The translations under genes were made by a program, and so were the position numbers. This document shows positions 1,092-42,135 of a stretch of DNA of 44,072 nucleotides, piece after piece (the stretch's first letter is position 1; every line of letters starts with the position of its first letter). Where the stretch lies: contig JAVCCJ010000061.1 of assembly GCA_030765585.1 (NCBI GenBank), positions 1-44,072 on the forward strand. The letters run 5' to 3'. Below the pieces are notes generated by a model. It had not been told where the DNA came from. It made no database searches and saw only the letters and a list, made by a program, of their open reading frames with translations. This DNA is from Candidatus Zapsychrus exili. Lineage in GTDB: Bacteria; Omnitrophota; Gorgyraeia; Zapsychrales; Zapsychraceae.

Positions 1092-1814
1092 CTATTTCTT
1101 AGGCTTTCTTTTAGCTTTTTCTCTGTAAAGAAGTTTCCAAGGATTTAGTTTAAGATCATTGCTTAATTCTTCTAAATTTTTAGAGGCTTGATTAAGATTT
1201 ACCACTATACTATCAATTGATTTTTCATTTGTCTTAAGACGCTCATCTACGCTTGCTGTTATAGAAGATACATTACCCATTGTCTCATTTACGCTCGACA
1301 CTATCTCGTCAATTGCATCCTTATTAACTTTAAGACGTTCGTTTATATTTTGCGATATCTCTTTTAACTGCACCGCGACCTCTTTTCCCTCTAAAAGAAG
1401 CTGTCCAAAATCTGATGGCTCCTCACCTACAATAAGCGTTCCGCTGGGCAAATAGTCTCCTCTTGCACCAGCTGACACAAGGCCGACATATTTTTCTCCC
1501 ATGAATCCTAAATTCTTAATATATGCTTTACTTCCCTTTCTAAGCTTTGCTTTTCCCTTTAAAAATAAAACTAATTCTATTTTAGTTACGTCCTCTTTAT
1601 CTTTTACAATCACATCTCTTACAATGCCTACCTCAAGACCATTAAACATAACAGGAGAATTTGTGCTTACTCCATCTACATTTTCAAACTCAACTCTAAC
1701 TATTGTTCCGGTCTTTGAAAAATTAAAGTTTCCCGTCCTTAGTGTTAATATCAACAAGGACGCAAAAACTGCAAAGGTCATTATTCCTATTTTTATTTCA
1801 TTATTAAATCTCAT
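1092..1814 (-). CDS. mlaD: MCE/MlaD lipid-transport subunit
   Basis: N-terminal TM anchor, MCE motif F.NVDG...SPVMFNGLEVG.V and GFMGEKYV, C-terminal coiled coil ending NPWKLL. GGAGG RBS. Confidence 0.92.
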   Translation of the reverse strand: MRFNNEIKIGIMTFAVFASLLILTLRTGNFNFSKTGTIVRVEFENVDGVSTNSPVMFNGLEVGIVRDVIVKDKEDVTKIELVLFLKGKAKLRKGSKAYIKNLGFMGEKYVGLVSAGARGDYLPSGTLIVGEEPSDFGQLLLEGKEVAVQLKEISQNINERLKVNKDAIDEIVSSVNETMGNVSSITASVDERLKTNEKSIDSIVVNLNQASKNLEELSNDLKLNPWKLLYREKAKRKPKK

Positions 1815-1834
1815 ATAAAAACCTCCTCCATTTA

Positions 1835-2611
1835 TTATTCTTTTACTTCATTTAAAAGAATCGGACCATCAATATTTCCATTAATAAATTGTTGAACTAT
1901 TTCGTTAGAAGAATTTCTTATTTGTTCTGTTGTTCCAACCTCTAAAAGCTCACCTTTATAAAGCATCGCAACCCTATCTGCGATACGAAAAACGCTTTCC
2001 ATGTTATGAGTCACAACAATCGAAGTAATTTTAAGTTTTTTAGTTAAATCAACGATAAGCTGATCAACAACAGCACAAACAACCGGATCTAATCCAGCTG
2101 TTGGCTCGTCGTAGAAAACAATATCTGGATCCATTGCAATTGCGCGCGCTAAGCCTACACGCTTTTTCATTCCTCCGGATATCTCGCTTGGCAAATAATC
2201 TTCAAATCCAGCTAAACCAACTAAATTTAATTTCATCTTAGATATCATACTTATTATTTTAGCATCAAGACCAGTATGTTCTTTTAGAGGCAAACTTACA
2301 TTTCCTTCTACCGTTAAAAAATCAAGAAGCGCTGCTGACTGAAAACACATTCCAAAACGCTTTCTGATTTGCTCTTTTTGCTCAACACTTAAGTCTATTA
2401 AACTCTTATCATTGAAAGATACGTTTCCCGAATCAAAGCCAATTACACCTGCCATTATTCTAAGCAATGTACTTTTACCGCTTCCTGACCCTCCCATAAT
2501 TACAAAGATCTCTCCCTGATGCACATCAAAATTTATATCCTCAAGCACAACTCTATCCTGAAAAGTCTTTTTTATATTTTTAACCGATATTACTGTTTTT
2601 TTATTTTCCAT
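1835..2611 (-). CDS. mlaF: MlaF-type ABC ATPase
   Basis: Walker A GGSGSGKS, signature ISGGMKKRVGLARA, Walker B FYDEPTAGLDP and H-loop VTH. Confidence 0.95.
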   Translation of the reverse strand: MENKKTVISVKNIKKTFQDRVVLEDINFDVHQGEIFVIMGGSGSGKSTLLRIMAGVIGFDSGNVSFNDKSLIDLSVEQKEQIRKRFGMCFQSAALLDFLTVEGNVSLPLKEHTGLDAKIISMISKMKLNLVGLAGFEDYLPSEISGGMKKRVGLARAIAMDPDIVFYDEPTAGLDPVVCAVVDQLIVDLTKKLKITSIVVTHNMESVFRIADRVAMLYKGELLEVGTTEQIRNSSNEIVQQFINGNIDGPILLNEVKE

Positions 2612-2617
2612 CCTAAT

Positions 2618-3442
2618 TTATACTCCCCAAAAGAAATAAATTCCTGTCATAAAACAATCTGCAACTATTACAAGAATAAAACTTGTTACAACGCTTACCG
2701 TTGTCGCACGTCCAACACCCACTGCACCACCCTTTGTTTTAAGCCCCTGATAAACTCCTACCATTGTAATAATGATTGCAAAAATAAATGCCTTAGACAA
2801 TCCAGTGTATATATCTTTAAGCGTTAAAAATTTCCACGTAATATTCATATAAAGACCTGGGTTTATCTTTAAACTAAATACTCCGACGACATATCCGCCA
2901 ATAATACCAGCGACATCTCCTATTACCGTAAGAAACGGAAGCATTATGAATAAAGCAACTAGCTTAGGCACAGCCAAATATCTAATAGGACTTATTGCCA
3001 TTGTATCTAACGCTTCAATCTGTTCATTTACCTTCATTGAACCTATCTCGGCAGTTATTGCAGCACCTATTCGTCCGGCAATAACAAGTGCTGTCAACAC
3101 AGGTCCTAACTCACGACAAATAGAAATTGTGACTAGACTTGCAACATAAATAACTCCGCCCATCTTTTCTAACTGGTGGGCAGACTGCATGGCTAATACC
3201 ATTCCAGTGAAAAATGTTACAAAGAAAACTATTAGGATTGACTGAAACCCCATAAAAACCATTTGGTCGAATGCCGAAGAAAAGTTTATGGGCTTCTTTT
3301 TGAAAGGACCTAAAAATATCCAGTAGATGGTTTCAAACAATAGCTTAGCAAAATCTACAAAAATTGTTATCCACGCCTTAACGCACTTTCCTATTATTTC
3401 AAAAAAATCTAACATCTTAGAAAGAAGTATTCTTATCATCAA
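2618..3442 (-). CDS. mlaE: MlaE-type ABC permease
   Basis: RELGPVLTALVIAGRIGAAITAEIGSMKVNEQIEAL and GGAVGVGRATT.SVV motifs. Confidence 0.95.
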   Translation of the reverse strand: MMIRILLSKMLDFFEIIGKCVKAWITIFVDFAKLLFETIYWIFLGPFKKKPINFSSAFDQMVFMGFQSILIVFFVTFFTGMVLAMQSAHQLEKMGGVIYVASLVTISICRELGPVLTALVIAGRIGAAITAEIGSMKVNEQIEALDTMAISPIRYLAVPKLVALFIMLPFLTVIGDVAGIIGGYVVGVFSLKINPGLYMNITWKFLTLKDIYTGLSKAFIFAIIITMVGVYQGLKTKGGAVGVGRATTVSVVTSFILVIVADCFMTGIYFFWGV

Positions 3443-3455
3443 ATTATTTCTATTA

Positions 3456-3839
3456 TTATTTATTAATATTTAATAATTCTGCTATTTTATCAAGAAGATC
3501 GTCGATAACAATAGGTTTTGTCAGGTAGGCATCAGCGCCCATTTCTTGACCTATTTTTAAATCATCTTCTTTATCTCTTGAAGTAAGAAAAATTATTGGC
3601 ATCTGACTATAATTTTCATTCGACTTAAGCAAGCGACAAAGATTATAACCATTTATTACAGGCATCATAACATCTAACACTGCAAGATCAGGTGATTGGT
3701 CTATTGCTATTTGAAGCCCTTCAGCCGCATCGTTTGCCGATATTACAGTGTAGCCATTATCCGCCAATCTTGCTTCAAGAAGCTTAGTAACAACGCAGTC
3801 ATCATCAACAACCAATATTGTTTTATCATTGTCACTCAT
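3456..3839 (-). CDS. Single-domain response regulator
   Basis: VVDDD, LDVMMP phosphoacceptor, T and KP motifs; no output domain. Ends 13 bp upstream of mlaE. Confidence 0.92.
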   Translation of the reverse strand: MSDNDKTILVVDDDCVVTKLLEARLADNGYTVISANDAAEGLQIAIDQSPDLAVLDVMMPVINGYNLCRLLKSNENYSQMPIIFLTSRDKEDDLKIGQEMGADAYLTKPIVIDDLLDKIAELLNINK

Positions 3840-3878
3840 AAAATTAGATTCTTTCCTGATTAAATTAAATGAAAGAAT

Positions 3879-3935
3879 GATTACACAGATTAAAAAAATG
3901 CAATCCGTGTAATCTTTTTTAAAATCAGTGTAATC
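3879..3935. repeat. GATTACACAGATT / AATCnGTGTAATC inverted repeat set
   Basis: GATTACACAGATT (3879-3891) is followed by two reverse-complement copies, AATCCGTGTAATC (3902-3914) and AATCAGTGTAATC (3923-3935). Confidence 0.75.
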
Positions 3936-3938
3936 GAA

Positions 3939-3973
3939 ATCATTGATGTATTTTTCAAAAACACATCAATGAT
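3939..3973 (-). repeat. Long AT-rich hairpin, possible terminator or operator
   Basis: ATCATTGATGTATTTTT-C-AAAAACACATCAATGAT; the single mismatch becomes a G-U pair on the minus-strand RNA. Confidence 0.6.
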
Positions 3974-4079
3974 CCTAAAATTATTTTACTCTTCTATCAG
4001 GCTAAAACAAGACAAAGATTATTAAATAATATTAAGATTAAAAATACTAATAAAGTATAAATTAAAATCTTAGGAAAGA

Positions 4080-4709
4080 TTATTCTAGGAGTTTACTCGC
4101 GTGGGTGGCTGCATCTATTATTTCATTTACAACTTTTACAGATTCCTCAATAATTTCTTTATCTGTTCTATTTTTTACTAAACCATCTTCAATATTATCT
4201 CTATAATTCTCACATTTATTAATCATTATTCCCAAAAGATTAGCTATATTATGCTTCATCTTTGAAAAGTTATCTTTGTCTTGAACATTTGGTTCATTTT
4301 GAGGATAACCGCTTTTTATGTATTCTTTACCTAAAACCTTACATAATGTTTCTTTAAGCGTTTTTAATGGTATTGGTTTAAGCAAAATCTCGCTCACATC
4401 GTATCTTGCGATATCTTCTCTTAAATTCTTGTTATCTATATCTCCTGTCATTACAATAAATTTTATATACTTATCATATTCTCTTACACCTGATAAAACA
4501 TCTATTCCGCTTATATCATTCATTATCAAATCCAATAAAACCACATCTGGTCTCATTCTTTTTATAAACTCTAAAGCTTGTTTTCCGTTTGTGGCTACAG
4601 CTACTTCGTATCCGCTTCTGCTTAAATTAGTTTTTAATATGTCGCATACATCTATTTCATCATCAACAACAAGTATTTTTTGCTTTTCATGATTCATAGT
4701 GAACTCCAT
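4080..4709 (-). CDS. Response regulator with C-terminal DHp (HisKA)-like helical hairpin and no ATPase domain
   Basis: Receiver motifs VVDDE, LLDLIM, MTG and KP. C-terminal ~65 aa with an H-box-like KHNIANLLGIM followed by two amphipathic helices. Confidence 0.85.
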   Translation of the reverse strand: MEFTMNHEKQKILVVDDEIDVCDILKTNLSRSGYEVAVATNGKQALEFIKRMRPDVVLLDLIMNDISGIDVLSGVREYDKYIKFIVMTGDIDNKNLREDIARYDVSEILLKPIPLKTLKETLCKVLGKEYIKSGYPQNEPNVQDKDNFSKMKHNIANLLGIMINKCENYRDNIEDGLVKNRTDKEIIEESVKVVNEIIDAATHASKLLE

Positions 4710-4833
4710 AAGGTTTTTATTTATAATATCAAATTATCATACCGACAAGATAATTTCAAGGTAAGTAGAGTATAATTTTCTCTTATTTAAATAAACTACT
4801 AAAATACTACATTTAAAAAAGCTCTGTTTTGTC

Positions 4834-5064
4834 TTAGCTCAAACATCCAGTAAGGGTCAATTCGTGCTGATCTGAAGCTTCAAATGATTCGGGAGATATG
4901 TATCTTTCAAAAGCTCCATACCTTTTTGTCACTTCAAACGCTTCTTCTTTTTTATCTTGTGACAAAAGAGTTATTATTTGACGTATATGCTTGCCCTTAT
5001 CTAAACTAACCATAACTTTTAAACTTCCTTTGTTTTTATCGCTCATTACAAGTAAAACTCTCAT
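4834..5064 (-). CDS. Hypothetical 76-aa protein
   Basis: Strong AAAGGAGG RBS and a near-consensus promoter directly upstream; no recognisable domain. Confidence 0.75.
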   Translation of the reverse strand: MRVLLVMSDKNKGSLKVMVSLDKGKHIRQIITLLSQDKKEEAFEVTKRYGAFERYISPESFEASDQHELTLTGCLS

Positions 5065-5099
5065 ATTTGGCGCCTCCTTTCTCTCCTTCTCTTAAAACA

Positions 5100-5128
5100 A
5101 GTATAAAACACTTTTGTGCGTTTGTCAA
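5100..5128 (-). promoter_or_regulatory. Sigma70 promoter of the 76-aa gene
   Basis: TTGACA (5128-5123), 17 nt, TATACT (5105-5100). Confidence 0.75.
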
Positions 5129-5203
5129 TATTTTATGTATATTACGCACATTATCACAACTTACTCTAACGCAGTCATTTACATACCTGCAACACATCTA
5201 TTA

Positions 5204-5219
5204 CGCAATAAATATGCCA
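5204..5219 (-). promoter_or_regulatory. Sigma54 (-24/-12) promoter-like site facing the 76-aa gene
   Basis: TGGCATATTTATTGCG has the exact GG-N10-GC spacing of the consensus TGGCACG-N4-TTGCW. Confidence 0.6.
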
Positions 5220-5244
5220 TTGTCTATAAATATGCACATTAATC

Positions 5245-5273
5245 TTGAATTTATTTAATTAACATTGTATAAT
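5245..5273 (+). promoter_or_regulatory. Sigma70 promoter giving a probable leaderless mRNA for the HTH-cupin gene
   Basis: TTGAAT (5245-5250), 17 nt, TATAAT (5268-5273), 6 nt, ATG (5280); no SD sequence. Confidence 0.7.
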
Positions 5274-5279
5274 CATATT

Positions 5280-5834
5280 ATGAAGCTTTATGAAAAAATA
5301 AATGAAACGCTAGCAAACCGAAGCTTAAAAATTATCAACCTACACAGAAAAATAGTTGATAGTTTTGGATCTGAAGCGATAAGCCACACAACTCTTTATA
5401 GAGCTTTAACTGGAAAATCAAGTCTTCGCGAATCTTCTATATTTCAAATAGCAACAGCACTTGAAATTAAAACATCAGAGCTTAAAAAGAACACTGAAGT
5501 TCAAGATAAATTTAGCATATTTGAATATAATGATAATGCCTATCTTGAGATATCAAATGATTTACTTGAATTCTTACCTGCTAAACTTGTTATTAAGCCT
5601 TTAGGTAGAACAGAAATCCTACAAGATCCGCAAGAAAAAGGTGAATTTTATAAATGGAGTTTTGGACTAAAAGGAGAGATTGTTTGTACTATAATATTTG
5701 ATGACAAAGCGGAGAAGCATACTATAGGCAAAAATGATACATTTACCTTTAACAGTACAAATAAACATTATTACGAAAATACAACAAATAAAACCGCATC
5801 AGCTATTGTTGTTCAAAATCCAAAGTATCTGTAG
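5280..5834 (+). CDS. XRE-like HTH plus cupin transcriptional regulator
   Basis: HTH-like ISHTTLYRALTG...IFQIATALEIKTSEL and C-terminal cupin GLKGEI...GKNDTFTFNSTNKHYYEN. ATG 5280 is preferred over TTG 5265, which overlaps the -10 box. Confidence 0.85.
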   Translation: MKLYEKINETLANRSLKIINLHRKIVDSFGSEAISHTTLYRALTGKSSLRESSIFQIATALEIKTSELKKNTEVQDKFSIFEYNDNAYLEISNDLLEFLPAKLVIKPLGRTEILQDPQEKGEFYKWSFGLKGEIVCTIIFDDKAEKHTIGKNDTFTFNSTNKHYYENTTNKTASAIVVQNPKYL

Positions 5835-6225
5835 ATTCTTTTCTAAGACTCAACTTTCCTTTACTCTCTAAAATTAATGCAACCTTCTCTTTAAGTACTT
5901 TAAGAGATATTGGTTTTGGCATATATTCTACTTCAAGATCGATTAATTTATTTGCCATCTCCGACGAATCCCACTTTGTTACAACTATTATTGCAATCGA
6001 CGCGTAAAGCTCTTTTGCTCGTTCTAAAACTTCTTGACCGCTTATCCCTGGCATAGTTATGTCTGATATCAAAATATCATATTCTTTTAACTCTAATTTT
6101 TCTATTGCCTTGTAACCGTTATCCGCATCTGCTATCTCACAAACTATTCTATTTGCAAGATATTCTCTTATATTTTCTCTATTTTCTTTCTCATCATCAA
6201 CAATAAGTATTTTTGCAATATTCAT
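5803..6225 (-). CDS. Single-domain response regulator
   Basis: IVDDE, ISDITMPG, VT and KP motifs; AGGAGG RBS. The 3' end overlaps the convergent HTH-cupin gene by 32 bp. Confidence 0.9.
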   Translation of the reverse strand: MNIAKILIVDDEKENRENIREYLANRIVCEIADADNGYKAIEKLELKEYDILISDITMPGISGQEVLERAKELYASIAIIVVTKWDSSEMANKLIDLEVEYMPKPISLKVLKEKVALILESKGKLSLRKESTDTLDFEQQ

Positions 6226-6250
6226 AGTCTCGCCTCCTATAATTAAAATT

Positions 6251-6637
6251 TTAGACTTCTTGTTTCTCTGTATTTAAAAGTCTTTTAACTTCTAAGCCCA
6301 CAGTTGACTCCAAATAGGTTATATTAATAGGCTTTTCAACATAGTCATCTGCCCCAAGAAGCATGGCTTCTTTTTTTACAGAATCTTCTGCCGCGCAAGT
6401 TATTATTATAACCTTAGATTCTTTGCTGACCTCTTTTATCCTTACAAGAGCCTCTATGCCATTCATTGTGCCCATTCTTATATCAAGTAAAATAATATCA
6501 GGTTTCTCTACTTGAGTAATTGCAATTCCATCATAAGCATTATAGGCCGTAAAGACCTCCAAGCCCCTTGAAACAAAAAAATCTTTTAAATGTTCTACCG
6601 TGTCTTTCTCGTCGTCAATTATCAATAATTTAATCAT
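6251..6637 (-). CDS. Single-domain response regulator
   Basis: IIDDE, LLDIRMG, IT and KP motifs. Confidence 0.92.
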   Translation of the reverse strand: MIKLLIIDDEKDTVEHLKDFFVSRGLEVFTAYNAYDGIAITQVEKPDIILLDIRMGTMNGIEALVRIKEVSKESKVIIITCAAEDSVKKEAMLLGADDYVEKPINITYLESTVGLEVKRLLNTEKQEV

Positions 6638-6657
6638 TTTTATCCAATCTCCTATTT

Positions 6658-6921
6658 TTATTGTTGCTCTATATCCTTATCAGGGTCAATGCTTTGATAT
6701 ATACACTTTTTAAGTGGTATCATAATTTTATCTGCGCTCATTGCATATCCTTCTATTTTCTTTAAAGATTCTTTTATTTTGTTTAATTCATCTTTTAAAT
6801 TCTCTTTTGAAACAGCATCAATATCAGTATTTTCTATCATATCTGCTACAACACTCGAACTTATCGTTATCTTATTATGCCAATTACCTATATCATGAAA
6901 CATATTTTTTATTGTTGTCAT
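6658..6921 (-). CDS. Stand-alone DHp (HisKA-like) protein, putative histidine phosphotransferase or kinase modulator
   Basis: FHDIGNWHNKITI H-box; ungapped manual alignment to the DHp of the 724-aa kinase gives 17/66 identities. AGGAGG RBS. Confidence 0.75.
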   Translation of the reverse strand: MTTIKNMFHDIGNWHNKITISSSVVADMIENTDIDAVSKENLKDELNKIKESLKKIEGYAMSADKIMIPLKKCIYQSIDPDKDIEQQ

Positions 6922-6933
6922 AACACCTCCTAT

Positions 6934-7302
6934 TTATCCATTAGCTGCATCTTTTATTATACATTTAATATCTTCTATTTTTATAGGCTTTGTAATAAAT
7001 TTATAAGCTCCGAAACTATTAGCTTCTTCTTCGTATTCATCCTTATATCCCGAAATAATTATAAATTTTGTATTAGGGAACGAACTCTTAACTTGTTTTA
7101 AAACTTCCATTCCACTCACTTCATCTGCTAGCTGTATATCCAAAAAAACTACGTCTGGTTTTTCTAAATTAATTATCTCTATCGCTTCTCTGCCTTTAGT
7201 TGTTGTTAATACATTATTAAAACCATTAAACTCAAAATAATCCTTTAACATATCTAAAATATCCACTTCGTCTTCTACCAACAATACTTTTAAATTCTCC
7301 AC
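6934..7302 (-). CDS. Single-domain response regulator
   Basis: LVEDE, FLDIQLAD, ISG and KP motifs; GTG start with an AAGGA RBS. Confidence 0.92.
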   Translation of the reverse strand: MENLKVLLVEDEVDILDMLKDYFEFNGFNNVLTTTKGREAIEIINLEKPDVVFLDIQLADEVSGMEVLKQVKSSFPNTKFIIISGYKDEYEEEANSFGAYKFITKPIKIEDIKCIIKDAANG

Positions 7303-7359
7303 TTATCATTCCTTTCAATTATTTACTACATCTTTTATTCTACATTTTAATTTTTACTC

Positions 7360-9477
7360 TTAAATCGCTCTAGGTAAAGTTATAGTAACTATTGTCCACT
7401 CTCCACTCTTAGAATCAACATTTAACGTACCTTTATTCGCCAATAATAGATGGTACACCATATTTATCCCCATACCAGTACCTTTCTTACTCCCTTTTGT
7501 CGTATAAAAAGGTACCAATACCTTGTCGAGCTCGTCTTTTGTCATGCCTATACCATTATCTTTTATTTCTATTTTTATAATATCACCCATTATTTCAGAC
7601 ATAATTATTATCTCTGGCTGATAGCCCTGGTTATTTTGGTTCTCTTTCTTTATTTCCATCGCATCACAACTATTATCAAGAGCATTATATACAATGTCTT
7701 GTAAGGTTGAATAGTTTGCCCAAATTTGATTGCTAGTATTATATTCTGTTATCAAATTATATTGCAACCTCGGATGTTTAACCGCAACTAAACTCATACT
7801 CGACTTTACTACTTCATCTAATGATATGCTTTGAGGAGCTATATCTGTCTTAGCGTAATTCTTTATTGCCTCTGTTATTTCAGTACCTCGCATGGCGCTT
7901 TTAGTCATTCTTTCTACATTCTCTCTAATCTCTTTTATTATTTCTTCAGAGACTTTCCCCTCTTTTATGTTGTCTAATAATTCCAATAAAGAGTCTCCAC
8001 CTAACGATATAACATTAAGCCTATTATACATTTGATGCGCTATGCCAGATCCAAGAGCGCCTAAAGAACGAAGTCTACTTTCATGAAACTGCTGCGCTAA
8101 ATCTTTTTTGCTTTCTTCGTAAAACACAGCATTTTCAATTGAAGTAGCTGCTTGTTTAGCTAAAATATCAAAAACAGTTAAATCATCTTCTGAATATATT
8201 TGCCTTGATTTCTTTTTGCCCATTGTTATTAAAGCTAGAACTCTCTTGTCAGAGAATATAGGCACAATAAGTTCGGCATCAATACTTATAAAAGAATCAA
8301 GAAAATCATTATTTATAATTTTCCCTTGCTGCTCGTACTTTCCTTTTAACTCTTCAATTATTATTGGATTTTGATTATTTATAAAATAATTTATTAGTTC
8401 TGAATCAGATTTTATCGACTTTATTTTTTTATCTGCTGTTGTTGCTCTAAGAGCATACGATTCCTCAACCTCATCAAATAAATATATAGAGCAGTGCTCA
8501 ATTTTTATAGACCTATACAATGTATGAATTATAAAATCCAACAAATGTTTAAGCTCTTTTATCTTAGCCATTCCTAAAGATGCACTTTTAAGTGTTTTTT
8601 GATATTGTTTTTGTTCTGATAAGATACGCGCTTCAGCCCGTCGCTGAAGGAATATATATAAATACGGGCCAGCGGTTGCTAAAACAGCCATGGTTAAAAC
8701 AGGAATAAGCCAAAGTCCTACTCCAAACAATTTAAACCCAACATAAAATGGTATTCCAAGAACTAAGGTATAGACTAGAATAAAAATCGTAGCTCGAGAT
8801 ATAACAAGCTTAATATCCATTAAACGCAATCTAATAATTGCATAAGCTATAATACATAGATGCACCGATACTAAAATATTACCAACCGGAGGTACTGGTA
8901 TATTAAACCAAAGGGGGAAATTAGTTATACCTCCAGACCAACCTATAATTGTAGCTATAAGAAGATATTTTATTTGCGTTCTATGCAAACCATCAGATAT
9001 CCTTAAATACCTTAATAGTAAATATACTGTTCGGAGAACTATAAAAAACCATATAGCTAAAAAATATCCAAAAAGATCGCCTGCATCAGGCCAATACTCA
9101 AAATAAAGCTTTTGGCTAACTCCTTTTATAAAATATCCAGTAAAGCATAGACACATAGAAACAACGCCAAATGCATACGCAAAATAAATTTCTACCTTTC
9201 TGTCTTTAGACAGTCTTAACATCGCATAGATATAGTGAAGATAACAAATAGGTATAAAAACTCCAGCTGCCATTAAAACTTTAGACCACAAAAAAGCATG
9301 GATATAATTATCCGATATTTGCCAAAAGAAATAAGCAATACTCCAAGCAGAAACACTTAAACAAAAAATCCCGTAAGTTATATTTGCAAGAGCCTTTTTA
9401 CTGCGAGAAAAAACAAATATTCCCAAAGAAAAGCTAGTAAATAAATTAATTAATGAACTTACTGCCCAAAAAGTCAT
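7360..9477 (-). CDS. Membrane sensor histidine kinase (HisKA_7TM-like sensor, GAF, DHp, HATPase)
   Basis: Multi-TM N-terminus, GAF ending LAKQAATSIENA, H-box AHQMYNRL, N-box NALDNSCDA, G1 DNGIGM, F-box PFYTTK and G2 GTGMG. Start moved from TTG 9492 to ATG 9477 by alignment with the paralogue (MTFWAVSSLIN vs MNFLALSGLVN). Confidence 0.92.
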   Translation of the reverse strand: MTFWAVSSLINLFTSFSLGIFVFSRSKKALANITYGIFCLSVSAWSIAYFFWQISDNYIHAFLWSKVLMAAGVFIPICYLHYIYAMLRLSKDRKVEIYFAYAFGVVSMCLCFTGYFIKGVSQKLYFEYWPDAGDLFGYFLAIWFFIVLRTVYLLLRYLRISDGLHRTQIKYLLIATIIGWSGGITNFPLWFNIPVPPVGNILVSVHLCIIAYAIIRLRLMDIKLVISRATIFILVYTLVLGIPFYVGFKLFGVGLWLIPVLTMAVLATAGPYLYIFLQRRAEARILSEQKQYQKTLKSASLGMAKIKELKHLLDFIIHTLYRSIKIEHCSIYLFDEVEESYALRATTADKKIKSIKSDSELINYFINNQNPIIIEELKGKYEQQGKIINNDFLDSFISIDAELIVPIFSDKRVLALITMGKKKSRQIYSEDDLTVFDILAKQAATSIENAVFYEESKKDLAQQFHESRLRSLGALGSGIAHQMYNRLNVISLGGDSLLELLDNIKEGKVSEEIIKEIRENVERMTKSAMRGTEITEAIKNYAKTDIAPQSISLDEVVKSSMSLVAVKHPRLQYNLITEYNTSNQIWANYSTLQDIVYNALDNSCDAMEIKKENQNNQGYQPEIIIMSEIMGDIIKIEIKDNGIGMTKDELDKVLVPFYTTKGSKKGTGMGINMVYHLLLANKGTLNVDSKSGEWTIVTITLPRAI

Positions 9478-9510
9478 ATGTCTAATATGCAAATTTTATT
9501 GTTTTATAAG

Positions 9511-11685
9511 TTAAGATTTTTCTATCTGTTCTTTTGTAGCTTTCGGTAATATTATTAAAACTCTAGTCCATTCATTATATTTTGAATCAATTTCCAATGT
9601 TCCCTTATTAGACTGCAAAAGTTGATATGCCATATTCATACCCATACCAGTCCCTTTCTGCGCACCTTTTGTGGTAAAGAAAGGGACTAGAACTTTTTCA
9701 AGCTCATCTTTTGTCATGCCTACACCATTGTCTTTTATTTCTATCTTTATTTTAGAACCCAAAAATTCTGACTTGATTTTTATAATAGGCTTATAATTTT
9801 CTAACAACAAATCACCTTCATTAATTTTCTTTGTTTTTATTTTCATCGCATCACAACTATTATCCAATGCATTATATATAACATCTTGCAGAGTAGAATA
9901 ATTAGCCCATATATAATCATCTGCTTTATAATCTTCTATAATTTCATATTCAAATCTTGGATGTTTGACCCTAACCAAAGACTCACTTGATTTTATTATT
10001 TTATCCAACGATATAGCTTGAGTGGCTATGTCTGTCCTTGCATAATTCTTTATTGCCTCTGTTATCTCAGTACCGCGCACAGCACTATTAGTCATTTTAT
10101 CCACATTCTTTTGAACCTGTTCAAACATTTTTAATAGCTCTTCTTTAGATGCGCTATCTTTGTTTATGCTAGATAACATGTCCAACAATACACTTCCTCC
10201 TAATGATATTACATTTAACCTATTATACATTTGATGAGCTATACCAGAACCAAGGGCCCCTAAAGACTTCAAACGACTTTCATGAAAACGCTGAGCTAAA
10301 TCTTTCTTACTCTCCTCATAAAACATGGCATTTTCTATAGCTAAAGCAGCTTGATTACCTAAAATAGAAAAAACCATAACATCATCATTGGAATATATTT
10401 GACCAGTCTTCTTCTTTCCTAACATTATTAAAGACAATACCTTGTCATTTACAAACAATGGTATTATTAGCTCAACATTGAGCTCTAACAATATACTCAA
10501 CAATTCCTTGCTTGCAGATGACTCATTATATTCATGTTTTCTCTTGAATTCTTCAACAACAAGAGTATCTTTTTGACTTTCTATATATTTTATTAAATCT
10601 GAATTTGACAAAATTTCTTTAATATTCTTGTTAACTCTCTCCCCTCTTGAGGCGCTTAAAACATAAGATTCTGTAATTGCATCCATCAAATAAACAGAAC
10701 AATATTCTATTCTTACAGACCTTGTTAATATGTGAACAATAAGCGATAATAAATGATTTAAATCTTTTATACTTGCCATGCCTACAGATGCTTGCTGAAG
10801 AGTTTGCTGATATTGTTTTTGCTCTGCAAGAAGTCTATTCTCAGCTCTACCTTGTAAAAATATATACATATAAGGTCCAATCGTAGCCAATACAGCCATT
10901 ATTGAAACTGGTAAAAGCCAAAGCCCCACACCAAACAACTTTAATCCTATTCCAAAAGGTACGCCAAGAACCAAAGTATATACTGAAACAAAAATTGTGG
11001 CACGAGACAATACTAATTTAATATCCAAAAGCCTATATTTAACGATAGAGTAACAAACAATGCCAACATATAAACTAATAAATATATTAAAGTGTGGGGG
11101 GAAATATATCTTATACCACATCGGCCAATTTGTAGCTCCGCCTATGAATCCAAAAATAGCCGAAATCAAGAAATATTTTATTTGTTCGTGTTTAAGGCCA
11201 ACCGTATTAAACAATCCCTTTAAAAGCAAATAGAATCCATATAAACATTGCCAAGACCAAAAAAGCAAATAGAAATGAAACGAAATATTAGGAATAGGCC
11301 AAAACCCAAGGTTATATCTTGGCTCTAGCTCAGAGAATAAAAAAGAGCTCAAGCTTAACAAAGCAAATACTATATTAACTAAATAATATATACGAATTTC
11401 AATTTTTTTATCTTTTAAAATATCAAGAAATGCAAAAATAAAATGCAGATAAGTAACATTAATAAAAATAATACCTAGTGTTAATGTTTTAAACCAAAAA
11501 AGTGCCTGTTCTGCATTGTCAGACAATTGCCAAAATAAATATCCTATGCTATATACGCAAACGCTTAAATTAAGATAAAAGAAAGTTTGATTCTTTATAT
11601 TCCGAGAATTTTTAGAAAATACTATTAGACCAGCAAAAAGACTTGCTGTAGCATTGACCAAGCCTGATAAAGCTAAAAAATTCAT
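9511..11685 (-). CDS. Membrane sensor histidine kinase, tandem paralogue of 7360-9477
   Basis: Same architecture and shared motifs: GGxTNxPxW in the membrane domain, AHQMYNRLNVISLGG, DNGVGM, PFFTTK and GTGMG. Confidence 0.93.
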   Translation of the reverse strand: MNFLALSGLVNATASLFAGLIVFSKNSRNIKNQTFFYLNLSVCVYSIGYLFWQLSDNAEQALFWFKTLTLGIIFINVTYLHFIFAFLDILKDKKIEIRIYYLVNIVFALLSLSSFLFSELEPRYNLGFWPIPNISFHFYLLFWSWQCLYGFYLLLKGLFNTVGLKHEQIKYFLISAIFGFIGGATNWPMWYKIYFPPHFNIFISLYVGIVCYSIVKYRLLDIKLVLSRATIFVSVYTLVLGVPFGIGLKLFGVGLWLLPVSIMAVLATIGPYMYIFLQGRAENRLLAEQKQYQQTLQQASVGMASIKDLNHLLSLIVHILTRSVRIEYCSVYLMDAITESYVLSASRGERVNKNIKEILSNSDLIKYIESQKDTLVVEEFKRKHEYNESSASKELLSILLELNVELIIPLFVNDKVLSLIMLGKKKTGQIYSNDDVMVFSILGNQAALAIENAMFYEESKKDLAQRFHESRLKSLGALGSGIAHQMYNRLNVISLGGSVLLDMLSSINKDSASKEELLKMFEQVQKNVDKMTNSAVRGTEITEAIKNYARTDIATQAISLDKIIKSSESLVRVKHPRFEYEIIEDYKADDYIWANYSTLQDVIYNALDNSCDAMKIKTKKINEGDLLLENYKPIIKIKSEFLGSKIKIEIKDNGVGMTKDELEKVLVPFFTTKGAQKGTGMGMNMAYQLLQSNKGTLEIDSKYNEWTRVLIILPKATKEQIEKS

Positions 11686-11688
11686 ATC

Positions 11689-13050
11689 CTAATCCTGCAT
11701 TCTCTTAATTTCATAGAAAACTATTTTGCCTGTTTTATCTAATGATGTTTTTATGTCCAGCTTATGTCCTAGGCCATACAATAGATTCAGCATGTACTCA
11801 TTATCTCTTGGAACAAACTCCCAATCGCAAAACCACATTGGTGGCAAAGGGGCGAATGGATCTTTCTTCTCGTCTTTTATGCTCAACAACAAAACTCCAT
11901 TCTTTGACAGCAGACTAATACAGAAATTAATAAAAACTTTTAGCAATCTATCTGGAAAATAGTCTATTAATCCAATGCTATATATAATATCTTTACTTCC
12001 GAATAATTCTAAATAATGCTTATTCTTTGCATTAAATTTAAGGACATTTTCTTTAAAATATTTAAACCTTACCTTTTTGTTTTTTATAGAATTCAATGTC
12101 TTTTTCGAAAATTTAATTGCTTCGTCATCAAAATCAACAAGCCCAAAAGAAATCTTACCTGAATATTTTACCCTCTTAGATTCTAGAATATCCTTTATTT
12201 CTCTACTAGGACCACATGCCAAATTTAATATATCTAAATTTTTTGCTTTTGAAGCATTTATTAGTTTTAAAAGAGAATTTCCCATAAAATCTTTACGTTT
12301 TCTAACAGCTTCAGCATATGGACTTTTTAAAAAATACCTATCAAAACATTCTCCAAACCCAGAAGATAATATTTCCTCATTATACACTATCTCTAGCATT
12401 CTATAATCCCCAGGATATCCTCTTGGCTTTTCGTAACCTCTGCGAACAATATTACTTCTATATGCCAAATATCCCGCACAAGCTCTAAAACATTTCTTGA
12501 TCTTTTTTATCAACAATTTATTTTTTAAATTTTTTGATAATTTATCAGCCTTCATTAAAATTTCATCAGTATATTTTGTTAATTGATCAACATTTCTTTT
12601 AGAAACTTTTTTCGCTCTTTTTATCCCTACAACAATGCTCTCTGCATTACTAATATATTCCTTTACATCATTCAGAAAAAATCTCTCTATTAATTTTATA
12701 ATTTTCTTATCACAAATATCTTTTATTATTGGATCTATGCTCTCATTAAGAAAAACTTCTCTCAATGCGTCCATATTATTTTTTTCTAATTTTACAAAAC
12801 ACACGCCATGCAAAACACCTTGTCTTTCTACAAGTTTTTTACTCCATAAAACTTTAAAATTAACTTTAAGATTCTTATTACCAGGCGCTTCTATGTAACA
12901 TTTTGCTTTCGAAGCTATGGATTGCTCAACAAGTATTTTCATACCGCTTTCGCTTATATCTATTATCTCTGCAACCACGTTTGGTGAAAATCTAATAGGA
13001 AGCGATACATTTATTCTGGGAACAACTCTTCTGTTTAAACTTATTTTCAA
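11689..13050 (-). CDS. PilZ domain fused to a PhcB-like class I SAM-dependent methyltransferase
   Basis: PilZ motifs RVVPR (RxxxR) and DISESG (DxSxxG). KPRGYPGDYRML motif recalled from PhcB-like proteins, SAM motif I LNLACGP, LVDFD and YSIGLIDYF. TTG start with a GGAGG RBS. Confidence 0.82.
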   Translation of the reverse strand: MKISLNRRVVPRINVSLPIRFSPNVVAEIIDISESGMKILVEQSIASKAKCYIEAPGNKNLKVNFKVLWSKKLVERQGVLHGVCFVKLEKNNMDALREVFLNESIDPIIKDICDKKIIKLIERFFLNDVKEYISNAESIVVGIKRAKKVSKRNVDQLTKYTDEILMKADKLSKNLKNKLLIKKIKKCFRACAGYLAYRSNIVRRGYEKPRGYPGDYRMLEIVYNEEILSSGFGECFDRYFLKSPYAEAVRKRKDFMGNSLLKLINASKAKNLDILNLACGPSREIKDILESKRVKYSGKISFGLVDFDDEAIKFSKKTLNSIKNKKVRFKYFKENVLKFNAKNKHYLELFGSKDIIYSIGLIDYFPDRLLKVFINFCISLLSKNGVLLLSIKDEKKDPFAPLPPMWFCDWEFVPRDNEYMLNLLYGLGHKLDIKTSLDKTGKIVFYEIKRMQD

Positions 13051-13317: not shown

Positions 13318-13749
13318 TTAGTCCCCCTGAAGGCCATAATCCATTATTTCGCCTGTGTTTCCATTAACTGTCACATAGAAAGGTATAGTTGGAATAAGCC
13401 CCCAAAGCAAACTGTAATCTTTGTCCTTAAAGTACACTATCCATCTTTTTTGTATATCACCTTTAAAGGTTAAACTAGGCCTGCCTGCTATAATTACATC
13501 TTGGCCATCTTTTTTCCATATATTCTTCTCTTCTATCTTAAATGGCTCTAGGCTTAAAAGCCTTCTTGCCAAACTCTTATCTAATATCAATTGGAGCGCT
13601 AGCAATATTGCTTCATCTTCATCAATGCCATCTGATGCATCAACATACTTTGCAGCTTCTCTTATTTCGCCATAGCTATAAGACTGATATTTAAATGTTG
13701 AGCAACCTACTAATAATATTGATATAAATATAATTATTACTTTTTTCAT
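13318..13749 (-). CDS. Putative lipoprotein with a PepSY-like C-terminal strand
   Basis: Signal peptide II with lipobox LLVG-C; C-terminal YVTVNGNTGEI. Confidence 0.75.
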   Translation of the reverse strand: MKKVIIIFISILLVGCSTFKYQSYSYGEIREAAKYVDASDGIDEDEAILLALQLILDKSLARRLLSLEPFKIEEKNIWKKDGQDVIIAGRPSLTFKGDIQKRWIVYFKDKDYSLLWGLIPTIPFYVTVNGNTGEIMDYGLQGD

Positions 13750-13790: not shown

Positions 13791-14411
13791 ATGACTATTA
13801 CACCTCAAACTACAGTAAGCAGCATTGAAGCTATCACCAGTTCAATAAGTACAGATCCTCATACTTACCGATGGTTTTATTTTCTCATATTTCAGCCTTC
13901 TTTAAAGAAAAAACTATGTTCAAAAGAAGATATAAACAAAATATATAAGAAATTAAAGAAAACTGTTCAAATACAAATGACGCTCTATATTTTTTCTATG
14001 CTTTTATTATGCTTTGCTTATGTTTCTAAACAATATTTATCTCTACTCACTCTTACCCTTTTTTTATATCCTCTAATAAAACTATATTTAGAAAAAAAGA
14101 GATGTGTGGTCGAGATTAGCAACCATATGCTAAGCCGCGATTTTGATACATCTGAAATTATTACAAAAACTCTTTATCAAATAACATCAATATACGGCAA
14201 GAAATATAAGATCCCTTGCTTGGTTGAAACAATTCATTTCTCAGATAATTTATGCAGAAAAGCTATTATTTTCACCTTTATCATTACTTGCTTTATTTAT
14301 CCATTCGACAGATTTTGGAAAATAATATTCTTTGTTTTATTTGTTTATTCCCTTATCTACCTTGTCACCAACACACATCTTGCATATAAATGCATAAAAC
14401 CAAAATTTTAA
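13791..14411 (+). CDS. Hypothetical membrane protein (~4 TM)
   Basis: 206-aa ORF with two pairs of hydrophobic segments; overlaps the convergent gene by 4 bp. Confidence 0.7.
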   Translation: MTITPQTTVSSIEAITSSISTDPHTYRWFYFLIFQPSLKKKLCSKEDINKIYKKLKKTVQIQMTLYIFSMLLLCFAYVSKQYLSLLTLTLFLYPLIKLYLEKKRCVVEISNHMLSRDFDTSEIITKTLYQITSIYGKKYKIPCLVETIHFSDNLCRKAIIFTFIITCFIYPFDRFWKIIFFVLFVYSLIYLVTNTHLAYKCIKPKF

Positions 14412-16327
14412 GAAGCCAGACTAAGAAAGATTCTTGCCGAAATATATACTATCGCCACCAAAGCAGCTATATTTCCAATTCGCGTAGCAGTCAAGAAAAG
14501 AACATTATTCACTACGTTATATAAATAAGACAACACGTACCTGTTCATATTTTTGTGCTTAAACACAATCTGTCCTAAAAAATAACTTCTCCAGTTAAGA
14601 TTCGTTATTCTATTTTCTCTTAACATATTATTGTAAAATGCTGAACCTGGAAGCGGAGTTATTAAAGAAACTGCCGTTACATCAGGTCTTAAATAAAAAC
14701 ACGATTTCCACAATTTAATCAAGTCTGAATATCTATCAGATTCAAAACCAAATATAAAATGAGCCTTTATATTGATTCCTGCCTTCCTAACTGCTTTTGT
14801 ATATTTTATATAATCATCTGCAAAATTAAACTTTCCTCCTTTAGCCTTTTCAAAAGAATCTCTAAATATCTCATAACCAAATAAAAGCATCTTACATCCG
14901 CTTTCTTTGGCTAAACGGATAGTATCTTCATCTTTTCCAATATCAATCGTACTTTGTGAAGCCCATTTAAGCTTCAAAGGCTTTAAAGCAGCAAATAATT
15001 CTTTTGCATAGGCAGGAGAGGAATAAATATTATTATCTAAAAATAAAAGAGACTTATATTTTGTTTTAATTCTTTTTGCAAACTCTATAACCTCATCAAT
15101 AGGCTTGTATCGTGGCTTTGATCCGCATAAAGAAGAGACAACGCAAAAGTCACAGCTAAACTTACATCCATGTACTGCCTCAAGACAATATCTTGCCTCC
15201 TCAATAGGAGCATTTAAAAGTTGCTGATGAACTTTCTTGTTAGATTCTTCCGACGGTCCACCAAAATATTTATCTTTTAAACAATCATTCTCATAATCCC
15301 TTATCACATCTTCCCAAACTCCTTCTGCCTCTCCAATTACTACACTATCGCAATACTCCAAAGCCTCGTCAGGCAGAAAAGTAACATGTGGCCCACCCAT
15401 AATAACCTTTGATCCTCGCGCCTTAAATCCCTTAGCAATGTTATACGCCTCATAAGCGTTAGACGTAAAGCACGTTATACATACCAGTTTGTCGCTATTA
15501 TAATACTGATCACGCCAAGTAACTTGAAGAAATCTACGTATCTTATAATCTTTTGGAGTTAAAGACTCTAGCACAAAGAAAGCTGGTGGATAAAAAAATA
15601 GTAAGGGAAACGCGATGCTATTTAAAATACCACCGTTTATTGGACTAACTAAATAAATCTCTTTTTTCGGATTAAACCTCTTTTTCAAATCATCATGCGC
15701 ATCTACCATTATATTTATAAAATATACAAATTCTAAAAGCTTAACATAAGTTAAAATAAAAAGTATAATCCTAAAGAAATAAAAATTCTTAATATGAAAT
15801 ACCTGCGGCAAATAGAACAAACACATATCTACCGTATAAATAGCAAGAATCGTTAAGAAAATCTTGAACCCTACAACTACTTTCTTTCTAGAAAGCCCCT
15901 CTTCTCTTAAATATTTACCTACAATAAAATTTGCCAACAAATACAAAACAACTACATTAAAATGAGCTCCTATAAAGAATGGCGACGGTAACATTTTAAT
16001 AGGAATCGTAATTGATAAAATTATATGCACAAACAAAGGAGCCAAAGTTAATAAGAAATAAAACCAAAAAAGTTTCCTAACATTAGTCTTACAACTTAAT
16101 ATCTTTGGTATAAACTCCTTTCTACTTGCGATATCAGCTAAAACACCATAAATTCCGCTTAATATAAAAACCTTTAAAATACTAAATAAAATAAGCACTA
16201 GCGCTGACATATTACTTTTAAATAAAAACATATATGTCGTATCAAGCATATACACACTAAATACAAAAATTAATATGCTATTTAAACTACCAAAGGATTT
16301 CTTTAAAATAAGATTATTACCTAACAT
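14408..16327 (-). CDS. Cobalamin-binding radical SAM enzyme with an N-terminal multi-TM domain
   Basis: First ~210 aa contain about 6 TM helices. B12-binding region ITCFTSNAYEAY...VIMGGPHVTFLPDEA...VVIGEAE, CxxxCxxC (CKFSCDFC), FLDNN, FIFG and TPLPGS motifs. Confidence 0.88.
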   Translation of the reverse strand: MLGNNLILKKSFGSLNSILIFVFSVYMLDTTYMFLFKSNMSALVLILFSILKVFILSGIYGVLADIASRKEFIPKILSCKTNVRKLFWFYFLLTLAPLFVHIILSITIPIKMLPSPFFIGAHFNVVVLYLLANFIVGKYLREEGLSRKKVVVGFKIFLTILAIYTVDMCLFYLPQVFHIKNFYFFRIILFILTYVKLLEFVYFINIMVDAHDDLKKRFNPKKEIYLVSPINGGILNSIAFPLLFFYPPAFFVLESLTPKDYKIRRFLQVTWRDQYYNSDKLVCITCFTSNAYEAYNIAKGFKARGSKVIMGGPHVTFLPDEALEYCDSVVIGEAEGVWEDVIRDYENDCLKDKYFGGPSEESNKKVHQQLLNAPIEEARYCLEAVHGCKFSCDFCVVSSLCGSKPRYKPIDEVIEFAKRIKTKYKSLLFLDNNIYSSPAYAKELFAALKPLKLKWASQSTIDIGKDEDTIRLAKESGCKMLLFGYEIFRDSFEKAKGGKFNFADDYIKYTKAVRKAGINIKAHFIFGFESDRYSDLIKLWKSCFYLRPDVTAVSLITPLPGSAFYNNMLRENRITNLNWRSYFLGQIVFKHKNMNRYVLSYLYNVVNNVLFLTATRIGNIAALVAIVYISARIFLSLAS

Positions 16328-31483: not shown

Positions 31484-31505
31484 AATAGAACTAATTTTAT
31501 AATTT

Positions 31506-33418: not shown

Positions 33419-33420
33419 AG

Positions 33421-34419: not shown

Positions 34420-34426
34420 AATTTTC

Positions 34427-34521
34427 CTGACTATTGACTGCTGACTAATAACTACTGACTACTGACTAACCACCTTTAAAAGCTTTTGGTCAATTGTCGC
34501 TAGTCAATGGTCTTTGGTCTG
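34427..34521. repeat. Inverted pair of heptamer tandem arrays (CTGACTA-type)
   Basis: Six units (ctgacta ttgactg ctgacta ataacta ctgacta ctgacta, 34427-34468) face five degenerate reverse units (tggtcaa ttgtcgc tagtcaa tggtctt tggtctg, 34487-34521). Confidence 0.8.
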
Positions 34522-35029: not shown

Positions 35030-35035
35030 AACCTT

Positions 35036-35950: not shown

Positions 35951-35957
35951 ATTAAAT

Positions 35958-36021: not shown

Positions 36022-36023
36022 GT

Positions 36024-42100: not shown

Positions 42101-42135
42101 AATATTTACCTTTCTAACAATAATATTACCAAAAT

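Follow-up and report, generated by a model that had tools for sequence, protein, structure and literature searches.

A candidate Phc-like signalling cluster with a PilZ-methyltransferase, twin 7TM-GAF kinases and a putative phosphorelay in Candidatus Zapsychrus exili

To our knowledge, Phc cell-to-cell signalling, in which PhcB makes methyl 3-hydroxy-myristate or -palmitate, is confined to Ralstonia and related bacteria and serves there in the control of virulence. In the Rpf/DSF (diffusible signal factor) system of Xanthomonas, comprising RpfF, RpfC and the REC-HD-GYP protein RpfG, a fatty-acid-derived signal is linked through a membrane kinase to the hydrolysis of cyclic di-GMP (c-di-GMP) by an HD-GYP domain, while multi-step phosphorelays are exemplified by Spo0F-Spo0B-Spo0A in Bacillus and by the route from LuxN, LuxQ and CqsS to LuxU in Vibrio. 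In published reports, PhcB is the synthase of methyl 3-hydroxy fatty acid signals (PMC10576176, PMC7154725, PMC13220807), and its product is described there as diffusible and as sensed by the adjacent kinase (PMC10576176, PMC7154725). This report concerns a cluster of genes at positions 3456 to 13050 of a 44,072-nucleotide stretch of DNA (contig JAVCCJ010000061.1 of Candidatus Zapsychrus exili, forward strand, positions 1 to 44,072; hereafter the window), in which a PilZ-bearing methyltransferase homologous to PhcB is followed by two seven-transmembrane (7TM) histidine kinases, a series of receivers and a small protein resembling the DHp domain of a kinase. With moderate confidence, the cluster is read as a Phc-like signal synthase-receptor system that has a c-di-GMP input and a multi-step phosphorelay. 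Its genes, with the evidence by which each was assigned, are as follows.

11689-13050, minus strand: PilZ-methyltransferase gene, 453 aa (Pfam PilZ and a match to the PhcB-group profile)
9511-11685, minus strand: histidine kinase 1, 724 aa (HisKA_7TM, GAF and HATPase_c in Pfam)
7360-9492, minus strand: histidine kinase 2, 710 aa from a TTG or 705 aa from an ATG (HisKA_7TM, GAF and HATPase_c)
6934-7302, minus strand: REC122, single-domain receiver of 122 aa (Pfam Response_reg, 83.3 bits)
6658-6921, minus strand: mini-DHp protein, 87 aa (hhalign to kinase DHp; no Pfam family)
6251-6637, minus strand: REC128, single-domain receiver of 128 aa (Pfam, 92.3 bits)
5803-6225, minus strand: REC140, single-domain receiver of 140 aa (Pfam, 81.4 bits)
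5265-5834, plus strand: HTH(XRE)-cupin regulator, 189 aa (Cupin_2 below cut-off, and homologues)
4834-5064, minus strand: open reading frame (ORF) of 76 aa (no family, no relative)
4080-4709, minus strand: REC-DHp, 209 aa, a REC domain with an 84-aa His-containing tail (Pfam REC, 81.8 bits)
3879-3914, minus strand: terminator-like hairpin with a 14-bp stem, 3' of the REC-DHp gene (terminator scan)
3456-3839, minus strand: REC127, 127 aa, a doubtful member of the cluster

The ORF listing and Pfam give the same gene map, almost gene for gene, as a first-pass annotation made from the letters alone. Within the first minus-strand run, from the methyltransferase to REC140, the genes are separated by 3, 18, 57, 12, 20 and 25 bp; the HTH-cupin gene is convergent with this run and overlaps the end of REC140 by 32 bp.

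By sequence comparison, the methyltransferase domain of the 453-aa enzyme is homologous to the PhcB family. A tblastn search with the enzyme led to a plasmid gene of Paraburkholderia graminis (E 1e-12), which comes first in a phcBSRQ-like row composed of a methyltransferase (468 aa), a kinase (445 aa) and two response regulators. The plasmid protein is 64-92% identical to the 120 best proteins listed for it; those named by organism are all Burkholderiales, including Paraburkholderia, Cupriavidus and Massilia, and many bear the name that KEGG gives to PhcB (K19620), 'EF 3-hydroxypalmitic acid methyl ester biosynthesis protein'. One is named 'Regulatory protein', which is the product name of phcB in GMI1000 (PMC6989110). 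For the comparisons made here, the PhcB group consists of 18 proteins reached through the P. graminis plasmid protein. In hhalign, the window enzyme aligned with the Paraburkholderia PhcB-like protein over 229 columns (99.6%, E 6.3e-24) and with the 18 proteins over 223 columns (99.7%, E 3.7e-26), the latter covering window residues 194-426 (11773-12471), and a KPxGYxGDY stretch before motif I for S-adenosylmethionine (SAM) is common to the window family and the PhcB group. By the tblastn match, the phcBSRQ-like row and the hhalign result, the enzyme groups with PhcB-type enzymes and not with protein or RNA methyltransferases, as had been supposed at first pass. Among 8000 candidates scored from a search of 5.8 billion proteins, it has 327 relatives, the best at 46% identity, nearly all of them PilZ-methyltransferases of about 450 aa belonging to uncultured bacteria; in a few a REC domain comes first, and one had been given the PhcB KEGG name by JGI. 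The generic class I methyltransferase families remained below their Pfam cut-offs (Methyltransf_31 at 19.5, Methyltransf_20 at 18.8 and Methyltransf_12 at 19.7 bits), NCBIfam held no match for the enzyme, and searches of the PDB returned only chance thioredoxin matches for the single sequence and two weak generic methyltransferase matches for the profile (best E 6.8e-5).

The PilZ domain occupies residues 7-98 (12757-13032) and scores 31.6 bits against a cut-off of 22.5 (PF07238). Both of its c-di-GMP-binding motifs, as read from the translation, are intact, namely RxxxR (R8-R12) and DxSxxG (D31-S33-G36). Both are kept in 104 of the 120 best homologues of the window family, and they are missing from the PhcB group as well as from the four REC-fused variants checked. 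In the AlphaFold 2 (AF2) model of the window enzyme (predicted local distance difference test, pLDDT, 86.8), a six-strand beta-barrel (13-85) is followed by helices (90-266) and a Rossmann fold (271-450). The PhcB-group proteins are of similar total length, and the AF2 models of both enzymes are colinear, each having six strands, four long helices and a Rossmann fold; for the N-termini this is only suggestive, because the PhcB-group model is weak (pLDDT 66.7, and 55-65 N-terminally). The N-terminal region of the PhcB group may be a degenerate PilZ-like barrel. It includes R22, the site of a reported adaptive phcB mutation, R22C (PMC6989110); this residue lies outside the methyltransferase domain, in the predicted N-terminal strand region, and is invariant in the 18-sequence alignment.

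Relatives of the locus were collected by scanning one genome per species, which gave 306 confirmed relatives, and 79 loci with 82 methyltransferase genes were kept, spanning the Omnitrophota, Thermodesulfobacteriota, Spirochaetota/Leptospiraceae, Nitrospirota, Margulisiibacteriota, Elusimicrobiota and others. Directly after the methyltransferase comes a 7TM kinase in 60 of the 82 genes, at a spacing of -11 to +74 bp, and a hybrid kinase in eight more; four genes are cut by contig ends, and a histidine kinase is in this position in 68 of the 78 assessable genes. The coupling of methyltransferase and membrane kinase seen in the window, on which the first-pass annotation had built its case, is in other words a recurrent one. 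The methyltransferase gene itself is patchy in the phylum, being present in 77 of 401 genomes searched and, besides the source genome, in three of 14 genomes of its own family. An acyl carrier protein (ACP) gene occurs in 12 of the 79 loci, a ketosynthase (KAS) gene likewise in 12, and any of ACP, KAS, the dehydratase FabA or a thioesterase in 17, neighbours that point to a small acyl-derived product. In four loci (L070, L076, L073 and L053), KR, ACP, FabA and KAS lie beside the methyltransferase. The source genome (2.04 Mb, 96% complete) has a single ACP gene, situated inside the housekeeping fab cluster. On a complete Omnitrophota chromosome (CP070807.1; locus L018, 4178-7378), a REC-ketosynthase fusion of 536 aa is followed by an ACP and then by a PhcB-like methyltransferase, an arrangement that suggests an acyl-chain-building enzyme under direct phosphorylation control.

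Tight pairing with a kinase gene would also suit adaptation of the CheR/CheB kind, in which the methyltransferase would modify a protein, such as a receiver or the kinase encoded next to it, and PilZ or REC would serve as the regulatory input. The variants in which REC replaces a working PilZ resemble CheB with its receiver, the PhcB-like plasmid protein has a weak match to CheR (E 0.0011, below cut-off), a distant homologue on a Deinococcus plasmid is annotated as CheR, and protein N-terminal methyltransferases appear lower among the Foldseek matches listed. However, the top PDB neighbours in Foldseek are small-molecule C- and O-methyltransferases, with no CheR among the 40 matches listed (ranks to 50), and 17 of the 79 loci carry acyl-synthesis genes (ACP, ketosynthase, dehydratase or thioesterase). 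The enzyme is, moreover, homologous to PhcB, which the literature describes as a synthase of methyl 3-hydroxy fatty acid signals (PMC10576176, PMC7154725, PMC13220807). Because of this homology, the acyl-synthesis neighbours and the structural neighbours, protein methylation is disfavoured and is accorded only a very slight probability.

The two kinases, which are the only HisKA_7TM genes in the source genome, are paralogues and are built alike. Kinase 1 consists of a 7TM sensor (11020-11652), a GAF domain (about 10330-10764), a DHp domain with His484 and a CA domain, and scores 40.7 bits for HisKA_7TM, 29.2 for GAF_3 and 58 for HATPase_c; kinase 2 scores 50.4 bits for HisKA_7TM (PF16927, cut-off 28.6). 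The latter probably starts at the ATG at 9477, which aligns with Met1 of kinase 1 and gives 705 aa. In both proteins the H box and the ATP-binding boxes are intact (AHQMYNRL, DNGxGM and GTGMG), the H box being identical, and in both the 7TM sensor has hardly any periplasmic part. Identity between the two is 54% overall, falling to 38% in the 7TM and 47% in the GAF region and rising to 74% in the DHp and 65% in the CA domain; a diverged 7TM region together with a conserved DHp domain fits two receptors of differing specificity that feed one pathway. The transmitter is related to that of the PhcS-like kinase of locus L081 (21% identity, E 2e-20).

Beyond the kinases lie the components of the proposed relay. 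The 87-aa mini-DHp protein carries His9 within FHDIGNWHNKI, and its relatives in loci L036 and L039 share the motif FHxxxNxxNK. In a search of 1.84 billion representative proteins (E<=1e-3), 100 relatives were found; 88 of them have at most 110 aa, and the His is kept in 94% of those 88. REC-mini, mini-REC and tandem forms occur. When 36 members were aligned with the DHp domain of the 7TM kinases, hhalign gave 97.3% (E 2.2e-11) with His on His, and three sequences gave 93.5% (E 2.3e-7). Judged from these alignments, the 87-aa protein consists of a DHp domain of the kinase type standing by itself, and is a candidate His-phosphotransfer protein. REC122, its upstream neighbour, has as acceptor Asp55 in FLDIQL.

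The surroundings of the mini-DHp gene were surveyed in metagenomes with the three-sequence alignment as query, and 25 loci were obtained. REC is directly upstream of the gene in 23 of these, two being cut by the contig start, and REC or REC-REC genes come after it. The whole order kinase-REC-mini-REC is found in 21, with four cut by contig ends, and again in L036 and L039, so that the co-conservation of the mini-DHp gene, proposed from the window, is upheld. In 16 of the 25 loci an unnamed gene of about 98 aa is next after the RECs, and in eight an ACP gene comes after it. Nine loci have room upstream of the kinase: three have KAS-ACP there and three a methyltransferase, and the remaining slots are taken by an acyl-thioester-reductase-type enzyme, an aldehyde dehydrogenase, or a Methyltransf_20-aminotransferase fusion preceded by a STAS-PilZ gene. 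KAS-ACP-thioesterase is another occupant of this slot. Across these loci the receptor and the relay do not change, and what varies is the choice of lipid-type enzyme in the slot.

Two observations may be added on these loci. In L126 (3307-6529), a STAS-PilZ protein precedes a 678-aa protein in which Methyltransf_20 (88.9 bits) is fused to a class I/II aminotransferase, after which come the 7TM kinase and REC-mini-REC; the fold family of this aminotransferase includes the CqsA/LqsA autoinducer synthases. The unnamed family, starting with MANPLPNE and about 90-120 aa in length (L036, 5965-6261; L010, 4292-4660; 16 of the metagenome loci L104-L128), is marked by the conserved stretch HHIxNxLxxINLIxG, lies directly before the ACP gene inside the relay and is absent from the window. 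It was considered as a second DHp family on account of its H-box-like HHIxNxL and was set aside, the match being not significant (E 0.006).

It is conceivable that the synthase-kinase pair is real and that the receivers and DHp proteins are not wired to the kinases, or that the His proteins are inert. Of the two His-containing helical modules recognized at first pass, the 87-aa protein has the DHp match given above, whereas the tail of REC-DHp, with its His in MKHNIANLL, matches the kinase DHp only weakly in hhalign (40%, E 3e-4, His aligned); phmmer matched this tail to the DHp domains of five kinases, and the tail with its His is kept in L010 and matched in L123. A predicted complex of two mini-DHp chains with REC122 scored 0.46, against 0.01 for the best of three controls, with at least 92% contact agreement among runs and a partner pLDDT of at least 81. 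It lends the pairing weak support only: 116 of 157 solved complexes attained the mark, as did two of 215 mismatches, but with a score of 0.60 or less it was attained by only 18 of the 157 solved complexes and by both mismatches, and since REC-DHp complexes have already been solved, the pass may reflect no more than likeness to these. REC127, moreover, probably belongs to another operon (see below). Set against this, the order kinase-REC-mini-REC is kept in 21 of the 25 metagenome loci and in L036 and L039, all 36 aligned mini proteins have the His and fusions of the mini domain to REC exist, and in all five receivers, as read from their translations, the acceptor Asp is intact, as are the Thr/Ser and Lys positions. 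A relay detached from the kinases is accordingly held to be improbable, and wiring of the kinases to the receivers is retained as the working model.

None of the receivers of the cluster has an output domain in Pfam, and to that extent the relay was aptly called output-less at first pass; the term is too strong for the system as a whole, as a conserved HTH-cupin gene lies in the cluster and a REC + GAF-HD-GYP module on another contig. The HTH-cupin protein reaches 25.2 bits for Cupin_2, just below the cut-off of 27.2, and its HTH is seen only via homologues, those in L036 and L010 matching HTH_3 and Cupin_2. Relatives likewise sit at the far end, in convergent orientation, in 12 of the 79 genome loci and four of the 25 metagenome loci. 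Among the 51 loci for which 5 kb or more of downstream sequence is available, 15 have a GAF-HD-GYP or REC-HD-GYP gene after the receivers. In the source genome, the corresponding genes form a satellite module on contig C49 (locus L102).

8123-10851: the module as a whole, directly after plsX-fabH-fabD
8123-8482: REC (REC119)
8486-9106: GAF
9110-9673: HD_5/HD-GYP
10195-10851, minus strand: HTH_3-Cupin_2 gene, with a convergent 99-aa ORF before it

This module matches the REC, GAF-HD-GYP and cupin genes found inside the cluster in relatives, and its REC119, together with REC128, is among the nearest paralogues of REC122. The source genome has eight GGDEF and 11 PilZ matches. Elsewhere in the window (41330-43782), a REC-PAS protein (256 aa) adjoins a PAS-GGDEF-EAL protein (548 aa), a c-di-GMP turnover pair situated 28 kb from the PilZ-methyltransferase.

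At the far end of the cluster, REC127 and REC-DHp are separated by a 240-bp gap containing the hairpin (3914-3879), REC127 lies 13 bp upstream of mlaE in the phospholipid-transport genes mlaE-mlaF-mlaD, and its nearest paralogues are RECs of contig C63 rather than those of the cluster. For these reasons REC127 probably heads the mlaE-mlaF-mlaD operon, and of the five receivers counted at first pass, none of which has a DNA-binding domain, probably four belong to the system. A single-domain receiver as the apparent first gene of a phospholipid-transport operon (1092-3839) is an observation in its own right.

The proximity of these genes raises the possibility of a homeostasis loop, in which the enzyme would supply the cell itself with a methylated lipid or metabolite, to be used in its envelope or metabolism, and the 7TM kinases would monitor the state of the membrane or its lipids. 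Not only does the cluster adjoin REC127-mlaE-mlaF-mlaD; the satellite REC + GAF-HD-GYP genes stand directly after plsX-fabH-fabD, the neighbours in relatives are lipid enzymes, and 7TM sensors with hardly any periplasmic part could read the membrane state. The Mla neighbourhood is, however, not conserved, no match to MlaE or MlaD being found in the 79 related methyltransferase loci, and an enzyme slot that varies in front of an unchanging receptor and relay is what signal-receptor pairs typically show. PhcB, the closest characterised relative, makes a diffusible signal that is sensed by the adjacent kinase, according to the papers on it (PMC10576176, PMC7154725). Homeostasis is considered unlikely, and a signal directed to other cells remains the preferred reading.

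The remaining genes around the cluster can be dealt with briefly. The 76-aa ORF has no Pfam or NCBIfam match and no relative among the 79 related loci, and is unsupported as a gene of the system. On the other flank, three ORFs without a Pfam family have no relatives in the related loci: 13318-13749 (143 aa, with a lipoprotein-like signal), 13791-14411 (206 aa, membrane) and 16332-16952 (206 aa); the first two had been considered as conserved parts and were rejected. A further ORF without a Pfam family lies at 39488-41128 (546 aa). The 639-aa B12-binding radical SAM protein at 14408-16327 has as best NCBIfam matches lipid-modifying types (HpnJ, ladderane-type), far below their cut-offs; its relatives are near the methyltransferase-kinase pair in five of the 79 loci (L008, L033, L034, L050 and L070), and the source genome holds four weak paralogues. 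A Bat-type aerotolerance operon at 29702-37019 comprises a MoxR AAA ATPase, DUF58, two VWA/BatA-like genes, TPR and BatD-like genes. The word 'island', used at first pass, finds no support in the sense of a mobile element: there are no mobility genes among the ORFs scanned, and the dip in GC content is slight (0.29-0.32 here, 0.32-0.36 otherwise). A promoter scan stayed at chance (68 sites against 69.3 expected), and terminator-like sites were not enriched overall (seven found, 4.4 expected). The nearest protein relatives carry Omnitrophota labels. The stretch is present in three public DNA runs, all of them salt-lake metagenomes, with no RNA run among the public runs that contain it.

The analysis shows the domain architectures, the homology to PhcB and to kinase DHp, and a gene order that is conserved. 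As to what the product is, how it is released, which protein detects it, in what sequence phosphate is handed on and in which direction c-di-GMP acts, we infer the following scheme. The 453-aa enzyme would be a small-molecule SAM methyltransferase of the PhcB kind, most likely methylating an acyl-derived acid from fatty-acid synthesis, and its N-terminal PilZ domain would place it under c-di-GMP control. Both 7TM-GAF kinases would respond, within the membrane, to the product or to a pair of related molecules, and would autophosphorylate on the conserved His. Phosphate might then pass from the kinases to REC122, on to His9 of the mini-DHp protein and from there to REC128 and/or REC140, with REC-DHp as a further or branching step of the relay. 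A DNA-binding response regulator of the classical type is probably not the output, for which the candidates are the HTH-cupin regulator and the REC + GAF-HD-GYP module; the latter, as a predicted c-di-GMP phosphodiesterase, could couple the signal back to c-di-GMP.

Several points weigh against this scheme and are best taken together. With regard to the enzyme, experiments exist only on Burkholderiales members of the family, and over the 223-229 aligned columns the enzyme is only about 25% identical to the PhcB group. The likeness to PhcB put forward at first pass is seen in the C-terminal 230 residues or so; in the N-terminal 200 there is no similarity by sequence to the PhcB group (hhalign E 0.13-0.83). 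PF12147, tried as a direct link to PhcB, was rejected: the window enzyme scores 18.8 bits against a cut-off of 21, a six-frame search of the source genome with this family found nothing, only E. coli of the control genomes matched, and the literature searched held no mention of it. No gene for an ACP, a ketosynthase or a thioesterase lies at the window locus, so that the enzyme would have to use general fatty-acid synthesis, as PhcB itself probably does. With regard to the receptors, the earlier formula of 'same logic, different architecture' is sustained by the pairing of enzyme and kinase, but the sensor is not like that of PhcS: in their membrane part the kinases show no similarity to the PhcS-like protein of L081 (E 0.18). 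For ten of the 82 methyltransferase genes there is no kinase within 400 bp, tight pairing is equally expected of an enzyme that modifies the kinase, and the methyltransferase is in only three of the nine mini-DHp loci with room upstream. With regard to output, there is no PhcR-type or LysR PhcA-type gene among the Pfam matches of the cluster, and the GAF-HD-GYP gene of the source genome has a single in-frame TAA (9107-9109). HD-GYP is also not enriched beside the PilZ-bearing enzymes (three of 17 loci against 12 of 34), and the proposed c-di-GMP feedback loop is thus not backed by co-variation.

No description of a PilZ-PhcB fusion or of the present gene layout was found in the literature searched, which accords with the first-pass statement that no characterised system is known to have this layout; the layout nevertheless recurs in uncultured bacteria and is not unique to the window. 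The novelties of the window are its twin kinases, a family of DHp-only proteins that occurs in a conserved context, the REC-DHp protein and an HD-GYP module that has split off. A broader proposal, of a widespread undescribed class of communication system in which c-di-GMP directly switches the synthase of a lipid-like autoinducer, 7TM kinases read the signal, a mini-DHp relay carries it and, in many relatives, HD-GYP enzymes feed back on c-di-GMP, is offered tentatively, as something more doubtful than probable. Were this proposal correct, a loop would be closed between an intracellular second messenger and an extracellular signal, and a first circuit of the quorum-sensing type would be at hand in Omnitrophota-like bacteria with small genomes. 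What can be said is that the Phc type of synthase occurs in distant uncultured phyla, nearly always with a membrane kinase, and is here fused to a c-di-GMP sensor that is missing from the characterised enzymes. Were the scheme inferred above correct, the state of a second messenger would directly gate the production of a cell-to-cell signal, the 7TM-GAF kinases would, as a new receptor family, gain a class of ligand, and the unnamed 87-residue phosphotransfer family would gain a role.

Among described systems, the kinases recall PrsK of the XrtA/PEP-CTERM system (TIGR02916), likewise a multi-pass membrane sensor with GAF and kinase domains, and match its model along the full length of the model (residues 22-707 to positions 12-679); membership was rejected, the scores of 74.6 and 65.7 bits being far below the cut-off of 300. 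With the Spo0 and Lux relays the cluster shares single-domain receivers flanking a small His protein and an arrangement in which several receptors may feed one relay, and the mini-DHp protein, like Spo0B, is homologous to kinase DHp. It differs in that its transfer protein has only 87 residues, is without a CA-like domain and belongs to a small family without a Pfam model, and in that no terminal DNA-binding regulator was identified in the window system. Rpf/DSF is approached by those relatives in which REC + GAF-HD-GYP or REC-HD-GYP comes after the kinase (15 of 51 loci). Here, however, the synthase is a methyltransferase and not a crotonase, the HD-GYP module of the source genome is on another contig and has an in-frame stop, and c-di-GMP is also a putative input, via PilZ. 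The closest comparison is with Phc of Ralstonia, Cupriavidus and Paraburkholderia (phcB-phcS-phcR-phcQ and PhcA). The window cluster, whose host is an uncultured bacterium with Omnitrophota-labelled relatives, departs from it in having a PilZ domain with intact c-di-GMP motifs where the PhcB group is without them, two receptors, extra DHp-only phosphotransfer proteins and receivers that are all single-domain or REC-DHp, with neither a PhcR-type receiver-kinase in the cluster nor a LysR match among the window genes scanned. The kinase transmitters are related, while the sensor is HisKA_7TM + GAF in the window and, in Phc, a short membrane domain with only a weak MASE8 match. Common to both are the homologous methyltransferase domain, including KPxGYxGDY, and the order of the genes, in which the enzyme is directly followed by a membrane histidine kinase, at a gap of 3 bp in the window, and then by receiver genes.

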